This document shows, one piece after another, positions 42,567-43,151 of a stretch of 64,000 bases of DNA. The DNA lies in sequence record PQ330092; one strand, given 5' to 3'. This DNA comes from Escherichia phage JP4. The first letter of the stretch is position 1, and each line of letters starts with the position of its first letter. A program made the position numbers and the translations under genes. Below the pieces are notes generated by a model. That model ran no database searches, was not told where the DNA came from, and saw only the letters and a list, made by a program, of their open reading frames with translations.

Positions 42567-43151
42567 ATGCGTAATTATACTAAATTCATCCGTACACTGT
42601 CAGAAATGGAAACCAACAAAGAGATCCTTTCAGCTTGTCGGTTAGCTGGTCTGGAGATCATCGGGGCAGGTTCTTCCCGTATAGTTTTCGCTTTAAATGA
42701 TCGGTTAGTGATCAAGGTCGCGAATTGTGATGCGGGTGTAGAACAAAATGAAACAGAATGTAGGGTATGGAATTTTTTAGACTATGACCGCCCTCAGTTG
42801 AAACAGTTCTTCGCTAAAGTGCATATGCATTTAAGCGATCCTGATAATATGTTTATTGTTATGGATCGGTTGAGTACTGCAAGTAAAGGCAGTGTAAAGC
42901 ACGTTAACGCGTGCAATGAATTAAAGTACAATATTAAACGTAATGCCATTGAACGCCAGCACCGCTTTGCTGATGCACTACAACACGTTGATGATACATT
43001 ATCAACACTAACGATAAGAGATATCAGAAAACAGAATATCGGCCAGGATCGCAACGGCCTTATTAAAGTACTTGATTACGGTTTAACCCGCAATATCTGG
43101 AATCAGTACTATAAAAAGCGTGATGTAAAAGCCGTAACTATAACACGATAA
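42567..43151 (+). CDS. putative protein kinase-like early protein (194 aa)
   Basis: GAGSSRIV..VIKV (Gly-rich loop + Lys), IRDIRKQNIG (catalytic-loop-like D..K..N) and VLDYG (DFG-like); start at ATG 7 nt after AAGGAGA. Confidence 0.5.
   Translation: MRNYTKFIRTLSEMETNKEILSACRLAGLEIIGAGSSRIVFALNDRLVIKVANCDAGVEQNETECRVWNFLDYDRPQLKQFFAKVHMHLSDPDNMFIVMDRLSTASKGSVKHVNACNELKYNIKRNAIERQHRFADALQHVDDTLSTLTIRDIRKQNIGQDRNGLIKVLDYGLTRNIWNQYYKKRDVKAVTITR

Follow-up and report, generated by a model that had tools for sequence, protein, structure and literature searches.

The kinase of phage T7 (T7K, gp0.7) is 359 amino acids (aa) long and carries a C-terminal shut-off/DNA-binding domain. Its targets include most of the host proteome, it neutralizes several defence systems, and its hallmark is the sequence DPV in place of DFG (PMC13645617). 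OspG and NleH are likewise kinases that a parasite uses against its host. Activation of OspG requires host E2~ubiquitin, for which we know of no bacterial counterpart, and HopBF1 and SteC have eukaryotic targets (HSP90, MEK). RIO and Bud32/PRPK are universal housekeeping proteins, mainly ATPases in ribosome maturation and t6A synthesis; with 220–260 aa they retain more of the C-lobe than the protein described here. OspG and NleH1/2 are active minimal kinase folds without subdomains VIII–XI (PMC12756638), and HopBF1 is an atypical, minimal kinase whose sequence resembles those of eukaryotic kinases to a limited extent only (PMC9950578).

Our analysis concerns a 194-aa protein encoded in a window of 64,000 nucleotides (the window being the whole stretch of DNA that was analysed). 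It is close to certain, judging from sequence comparison and a predicted structure, that this protein combines a kinase fold with intact catalytic residues. Its kinase-like nature is already in the databases and is not new. In UniProt the PBECO4 protein is named “Protein kinase domain-containing protein”, the GenBank records of Turkey3, fEgEco12, ph0011, Munch, SE_PL and K64-1 name it a kinase, and the ortholog in phage Sharanji (WNN14351.1) has been described as “another protein kinase, which function is unknown” (PMC11895373). Our literature search found no functional study of this mini-kinase family, which has neither a Pfam model nor a PHROG annotation.

The open reading frame (ORF) begins with ATG and has no internal stop, and the opposite strand is closed by many stops. 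Exactly the same protein is recorded as WPK19783.1 in Salmonella phage SD-1_S14. The source of the window is a jumbo myovirus of the PBECO4/121Q type, a group that infects E. coli and Salmonella (genus Asteriusvirus, RaK2-like group); over a stretch of 4 kb, the window is about 95–96% identical to 33 phage genomes. Homologs of the ORF occur in 53 phage records at 34–100% identity. Orthologs at 35–41% identity are found in RaK2 and K64-1 (Klebsiella), Munch (Salmonella), EJP2, Erwinia phages and the Xanthomonas phage XbC2. The features of the locus are collected in Table 1.

Table 1. Features of the kinase-like gene and its surroundings, in window coordinates (aa, amino acids; DTR, direct terminal repeat).
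Feature	Position	Strand	Remarks
DTR, first 20,114-bp unit, early region	26792..46905	.	Perfect tandem repeat; DTRs of vB_Ec-M-J and Sharanji
Sigma-70-like promoter TTGACA-17-TACTAT, 5' of the two-gene unit	42235..42263	+	
80-aa ORF, 31 nt upstream of the kinase-like gene; conserved RFST...KVYST	42293..42535	+	Homolog upstream in relatives
Shine-Dalgarno sequence AAGGAG	42553..42558	+	ATG of the kinase-like gene 8 nt downstream
Coding sequence of the minimal kinase-fold protein, copy in first terminal-repeat unit	42567..43151, stop codon included	+	194 aa; PHROG 4301 E=2e-42; AlphaFold2 pLDDT 92.8
Gly-rich loop IGAGSSRIVF, residues 32–41; family signature G-x-G-S-S-R	42660..42689	+	R38 112/112, G35 105/112
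K50 codon, beta3 ATP-anchoring Lys in VIKV (residues 48–51)	42714..42716	+	112/112; aligns to beta3 Lys of PKC
QNETE, residues 60–64, start of helix alphaC	42744..42758	+	Q60 and E64 both 112/112
Catalytic loop IRDIRKQNIG, residues 150–159	43014..43043	+	Aligns to HRDxKxxN of MKK4 and PKC; D152 106/112, G159 111/112
VLDYG, residues 168–172, DFG-equivalent Mg-binding motif	43068..43082	+	D170 and G172 both 111/112
Terminator-like hairpin, 12-bp stem, just 3' of the kinase-like stop codon	43164..43191	+	dG -19.5 kcal/mol, z -3.9
DTR, second unit, cut by the window end	46906..64000	.	Tandem repeat identity
Identical second kinase-like coding sequence, second repeat unit	62681..63265	+	0 mismatches at 20,114-bp offset

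The earlier note on this DNA had read four kinase motifs out of the translation, and all four are present where it saw them (IGAGSSRIVF, VIKV, IRDIRKQNIG and VLDYG; Table 1). The sequence evidence on its own is weak, yet it points solely to kinases. Pfam searches, proposed in the same note, do return kinases, all of them below threshold: Pkinase (PF00069) matches with E=0.0018 and 18.1 bits, compared to a gathering cutoff of 31.7, and PK_Tyr_Ser-Thr with E=0.0023. Even a weak Pkinase match is found in only 10 of 48 family members, and four of the 48 have weak matches to ABC1/UbiB. All matches listed from the PDB are protein kinases, whether the query was the single sequence or the family profile. 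Their alignments place IRDIRKQN...VLDYG onto HRDxKxxN...DFG of MKK4 and PKC, and K50 onto the beta3 Lys. SteC aligns to the family profile with E=0.004 (IGSGSYGTVY...VVKIPVNERGI), a match of borderline significance that is restricted to the N-lobe. A search of NCBIfam with the protein gave nothing significant, and in the PADLOC defence library the only matches were weak, generic ones to the PD-T4-6 kinase (best E=1.2e-4), which add nothing beyond kinase likeness. The protein is a direct member of PHROG 4301, which it matches over residues 3–188. This group is listed as of unknown function and therefore says nothing on function.

The structural evidence is much clearer. An AlphaFold2 model built from an alignment of 48 sequences (pTM 0.87; pLDDT in Table 1) has the bilobal protein-kinase-like fold. 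After two N-terminal helices, an N-lobe of beta-sheet plus alphaC runs from beta1–beta3 and a long alphaC (residues 55–73) to beta4 and beta5; the C-lobe has alphaD (109–120), alphaE (129–145), the catalytic loop, beta7 and beta8, and DYG and a single C-terminal helix (175–193) follow. The structural neighbours listed are almost all kinase-fold proteins, the exception being a few matches to SAICAR synthetase. Rio2, Rio1, RIOK3, Bud32 and PRPK are among them, and the BFVD holds many phage kinase-like proteins of 140–230 aa. The earlier note would have given up its proposal had no kinase fold been predicted; the fold is predicted with high confidence.

The second result on which that proposal hung was the conservation of the motif residues, and they are kept. 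In an alignment of 112 single-domain representative homologs, no two of which share more than 50% identity, K50, E64, R38 and Q60 are invariant (each 112/112). D170, G172, G159 and G57 are each found in 111 sequences, D152 in 106, G35 and Y/F171 in 105 each, and G33 in 93. Smaller alignments agree with these residue counts. Because the motif residues are conserved in homologs that are so different from each other, the motifs go far beyond chance. Two details deviate from what the earlier note described. Where the earlier note saw a “D..K..N” signature, the Asp is indeed conserved, but the Lys is not, since position 154 varies and position 155 holds Arg in only 24 and Lys in 22 of the 112 homologs. 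Position 157 is His in 47, Asn in 27, Ser in 26 and Gln in 8 homologs, and N157 is invariant as Asn in the close clade only. The residue preceding the catalytic Asp is mostly Gly across the family, not Arg, which makes it a non-RD family. From the alignments, D152 is presumed to be the catalytic base and N157 a metal ligand; E64 is the presumed partner of K50.

How far the family reaches was determined with an exhaustive profile search: 136 cluster representatives pass a limit of E<=1e-10, and with E<=1e-3 the number rises to 1,781. The viral contigs that bear family members are between 4 and 406 kb long; therefore, the mini-kinase family is not confined to jumbo phages. In IMG/VR we found no position bias to contig ends (9 of 36 members lie within 10% of an end, compared to 20% expected, p=0.28).

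Some relatives are arranged in ways that deserve to be described separately. On contigs of about 30–54 kb, tandem arrays of two to four paralogous kinase-like genes lie near one contig end (L025 672..3955, L049 672..3955, L020 1439..3031). Two polypeptides (P0061, P0066) contain three to four fused kinase-like copies, which could be gene-calling merges. One relative, P0121 (3,248 aa), has a PhageMin_Tail tape-measure domain (E=6e-30) followed by two tandem kinase-like domains with intact catalytic residues; these features lie within residues 125–315 and 665–1033. Kinase-like domains in a tape-measure-type protein suggest that the domain is delivered into the host together with the ejected tail proteins. 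Another relative adjoins portal and prohead-protease genes. Longer relatives mostly lack a Pfam domain; the exceptions are P0121 and a DUF5661 fusion (P0136). A ParB-like “DGHHR” spotted by eye in P0039 was dropped, as it has no Pfam support. Two metagenomic relatives have small ParE-like ORFs (PF24732) in their early-gene arrays (L014 1851..2099, L015 533..781), and the kinase ortholog follows a few kb downstream.

T7K is the best functional analogy for the 194-aa protein, since gp0.7 is also an early phage protein transcribed by the host RNA polymerase (RNAP) and has a divergent kinase fold. The two are nevertheless distinct, as the earlier note had supposed. The Pfam family of T7K (PF27024) does not match the 194-aa protein at E<=10, and PHROG 2828 and PHROG 15752 do not match it at E<=1. 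Aligned with hhalign to single sequences of T7K and of Sharanji gp144, it reaches probabilities of 0.6–2.5%; against the T7K family alignment the probability is 52% (E=1.4e-4), with the Gly-rich loop and Lys in register and the C-lobe motifs not. In structure, the T7-like kinases of BFVD are distant neighbours of it (TMq 0.52–0.58). The family has a conserved D-Y/F-G where T7K has DPV. We considered membership in the T7K family and rejected it on the hhalign result, keeping “remote kinase-fold relative” only. Sharanji gp144 (L008 16183..16857, 224 aa) matches phrog_15752 with E=1e-97 and phrog_2828 with 7e-16 and is a genuine T7K homolog. Because the genus has this separate T7K homolog, these phages carry two unrelated kinase-fold proteins. 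No T7K-like second kinase is found within the window; by synteny with Sharanji it should lie about 4.6 kb beyond the left edge.

Compared to a canonical Hanks-type kinase, the most conspicuous difference is what is missing at the C-terminus. The chain ends 22 residues past DYG, after one helix, and hence lacks the activation segment and subdomains VIII–XI, including the APE motif, the alphaF Asp and helices alphaG–alphaI. The Lys of HRDLKxxN is not a fixed feature either. The claim of a much shorter, distinct minimal form is thus correct as to the truncation and overstated as to novelty, since OspG/NleH and HopBF1 are equally small and active (PMC12756638, PMC9950578). Like OspG and NleH, the 194-aa protein has subdomains I–VII only, and it compares in size to the solved NleH2 kinase-domain chains of 162–163 aa. 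In Foldseek NleH2 matches with E between 6e-4 and 1.3e-3 and TM of 0.39–0.49, which is no better than ordinary kinases. No relationship to OspG/NleH was detected at the sequence level: NleH2 is absent among the PDB sequence and profile matches listed, and the family has its own signature (GSSR, QN..E, DYG). HopBF1 and SteC are also small atypical kinase folds; HopBF1 is not among the matches listed. RIO, Bud32 and the 173-aa Ark1 are reduced kinase folds as well, and neither RIO1 nor Bud32 Pfam profiles match the 194-aa protein. For the APH/choline kinases, too, there is no Pfam profile match at E<=10, and their C-terminal helical substrate-binding subdomain is absent.

The position of the gene tells us when it is probably expressed. 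Positions 26792..43886 equal 46906..64000 with 0 mismatches over the comparable 17,095 bp, at an offset of 20,114 bp. In the tandem units the phage's two direct terminal repeats (DTRs) adjoin each other head to tail, the arrangement of a concatemer junction or of a circularly permuted record, and therefore every DTR gene occurs twice in the window; the second kinase-like gene in Table 1 is a consequence of this perfect repeat. In vB_Ec-M-J the annotated DTR is 21,525 bp long and has the kinase ortholog inside, and the DTR of Sharanji measures 20,668 bp (PMC11895373). The DTR is packed with small ORFs on the plus strand. It contains 23 perfect sigma-70 promoters (TTGACA-N16-18-TATAAT), whereas 0.16 would be expected by chance. 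They span 27157..45150 (copies at 47271..63740), and 21 of the 23 are on the plus strand. Within the window there are no such perfect sites outside the DTR copies. In the related jumbo phage PA5oct, RNA-seq shows that most DTR genes are early (PMC7318152). Because the gene lies in the DTR, among perfect sigma-70 promoters, and because of the PA5oct data, we infer with good support that it is expressed early and by the host RNAP, in agreement with its being called an early gene in the earlier note.

The promoters and their surroundings have some further properties. Most of the DTR sigma-70 promoters share a conserved spacer and an extended -10 element, AGTACTGTATAAT. The promoter of the two-gene unit resembles a second module at 41959..41987, 276 bp away; both have the form TTGACAGTACT...AGTACTAT, with a -35 box TTGACA, a 17-nt spacer and a -10 box TACTAT. 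Two such similar modules suggest that a promoter cassette was duplicated in the early region. The hairpin region downstream of the kinase-like gene (43164..43199, AAAGGGATTGACTCCGGTCAGTCCCTTT) contains the -35 box TTGACT of the next promoter, and hence the signals for termination and re-initiation overlap.

Other genes in the window are of some interest in their own right. The early region of the DTR encodes a DksA/TraR-type C4 zinc-finger protein (37865..38122, Pfam E=3e-9) and a GNAT acetyltransferase (38187..38543, Pfam E=4e-9), both above threshold. They are plausible host-manipulating factors and would fit a host-manipulation module. A distant family member (L004) likewise has a GNAT gene as its direct upstream neighbour. 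Early proteins might be depleted in Ser, Thr and Tyr, a depletion linked to T7K promiscuity; we found no such signal, as the DTR ORFs contain 16.9% S+T+Y compared to 17.7–18.9% in the other regions. On the minus strand, 7382..21652 holds eleven consecutive paralogous ORFs of about 245–460 aa. In the one that was tested, a match to the RCC1-like repeat domain PF25390 stays below the gathering threshold (E=1e-15), and in the Sharanji annotation one ortholog of the array is an RCC1-repeat protein. A 256-aa ORF at 2583..3353 has weak matches to AAA/STAND-type NTPases (PF00004, 24.0 bits, above the cutoff of 21.2).

The 80-aa ORF in front of the kinase-like gene is probably co-transcribed with it. 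In Munch, EJP2, Hallingskeid and the metagenomic contig L015, a homolog directly precedes the kinase; in RaK2, in XbC2 and in members that are more remote, none was detected. Since matches in a profile search are confined to the close clade and L015, it is not a universal partner of the kinase. Searches of Pfam, PHROG and PADLOC assigned it to no family. A single-sequence model is moderately confident and gives an alpha-alpha-beta5 arrangement (pLDDT 77.7). We can only speculate that its product is a partner or a substrate of the kinase.

What would such a protein do? We think, with a probability of roughly 60%, that it is an active minimal kinase which is produced as infection begins and which phosphorylates proteins of the host or the phage in the service of take-over or anti-defence; activity, protein substrates, timing and role are inferred. 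The predicted architecture comprises the Gly-rich loop, Lys50, Glu64 in alphaC, a hinge, alphaD/alphaE, the catalytic loop with Asp152 and Asn157, the DYG motif with Asp170, and a C-terminal helix. That most family members are non-RD, together with the missing activation loop, suggests that it is constitutively active once made. Expression would most likely fall within the first minutes of infection, because the gene lies in the DTR among small genes with very strong host sigma-70 promoters, and the gene would form a two-gene unit with its 80-aa candidate partner. Its most likely role is then to use ATP to phosphorylate proteins of the host (or of the phage) on Ser/Thr(/Tyr). By analogy with the unrelated T7 kinase, the most likely outcome would be help in host take-over or disarmed defences.

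One could also argue that the fold serves a different purpose. It might work as an ATPase, a switch or a pseudokinase-type regulator of the RIO, Bud32 or COQ8/UbiB kind that binds a host or phage partner instead of phosphorylating many proteins. All substrate-binding subdomains are missing, RIO and Bud32/PRPK proteins are among the structural neighbours, a few members resemble ABC1/UbiB, the small adjacent ORF, co-conserved in part, might supply the partner, and COQ8 proteins are reported to act as ATPases (PMC13418538). We nevertheless regard this as rather unlikely, because OspG, NleH and HopBF1 are genuine protein kinases with the same truncated architecture, and because the catalytic Asp, which nucleotide binding alone does not strictly need, is kept in almost all homologs; besides, no RIO, Bud32 or ABC1 profile match is significant. 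Equally unlikely, in our view, is a kinase for a non-protein substrate (a small molecule, nucleotide, signalling molecule, RNA or DNA), similar to APH or to the archaeal tRNA 2'-kinase Ark1. Such an enzyme would be expected to resemble APH or choline kinases, whose profiles and substrate-binding subdomain are both missing here. The catalytic-loop and DFG matches are to Ser/Thr protein kinases, and the neighbouring genes do not hint at a nucleotide- or RNA-modification pathway.

Two simpler explanations fare far worse. If the protein were a shortened ortholog of T7 gp0.7, T7K biology would explain it. Both are early phage proteins with a kinase fold, and the T7-like BFVD neighbours and the family-profile hhalign result with its Gly-rich loop and Lys in register would fit; yet the lack of any T7K profile match, the C-lobe that is out of register, DYG in place of DPV (PMC13645617) and the genuine T7K homolog gp144, which the genus encodes outside the window, effectively refute this idea. 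Even less can be said for a chance resemblance of motifs without a kinase fold, or for an ORF that is not a real gene. While the sub-threshold Pfam scores might have suggested as much, the ORF is kept in all those phage records and in the 136 closer relatives, its motif residues are essentially invariant, and the fold prediction is confident with neighbours that are almost all kinases. We take this explanation to be refuted.

If the protein is indeed a minimal kinase, a broader picture can be drawn for the family, albeit one that we hold only tentatively and, with all its parts together, consider doubtful. The phage mini-kinases of about 190 aa, a large family, would be a second, T7K-independent phosphorylation strategy at the very start of infection. 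They would be recognized by the signature G-x-G-S-S-R ... V-x-K-x-A ... G-x-x-Q-N-x-x-E ... D ... G ... D-Y-G. Jumbo phages would deploy them from terminal-repeat super-promoters; elsewhere they would come as tandem arrays of two to four paralogs and, in at least one case, within a tape-measure-type protein for which ejection is presumed. A dedicated partner or substrate would be provided by the 80-aa RFST/KVYST protein. As an effector, the family would broadly serve host take-over or anti-defence, and its substrate might be an unconventional one.

The family to which the 194-aa protein belongs is separate from T7K and much less studied. Its gene lies in what is likely the first DNA that the 350-kb jumbo coliphage expresses, and the phage has a true T7K homolog besides. 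An ATPase or a kinase for something other than proteins would be informative too. If the protein is an active protein kinase, it would offer a very small and probably constitutively active kinase scaffold for study, and a function would have been found for one of the roughly 83% of genes that are unannotated in these therapeutic-candidate phages. It would also show that jumbo phages use two unrelated kinases.
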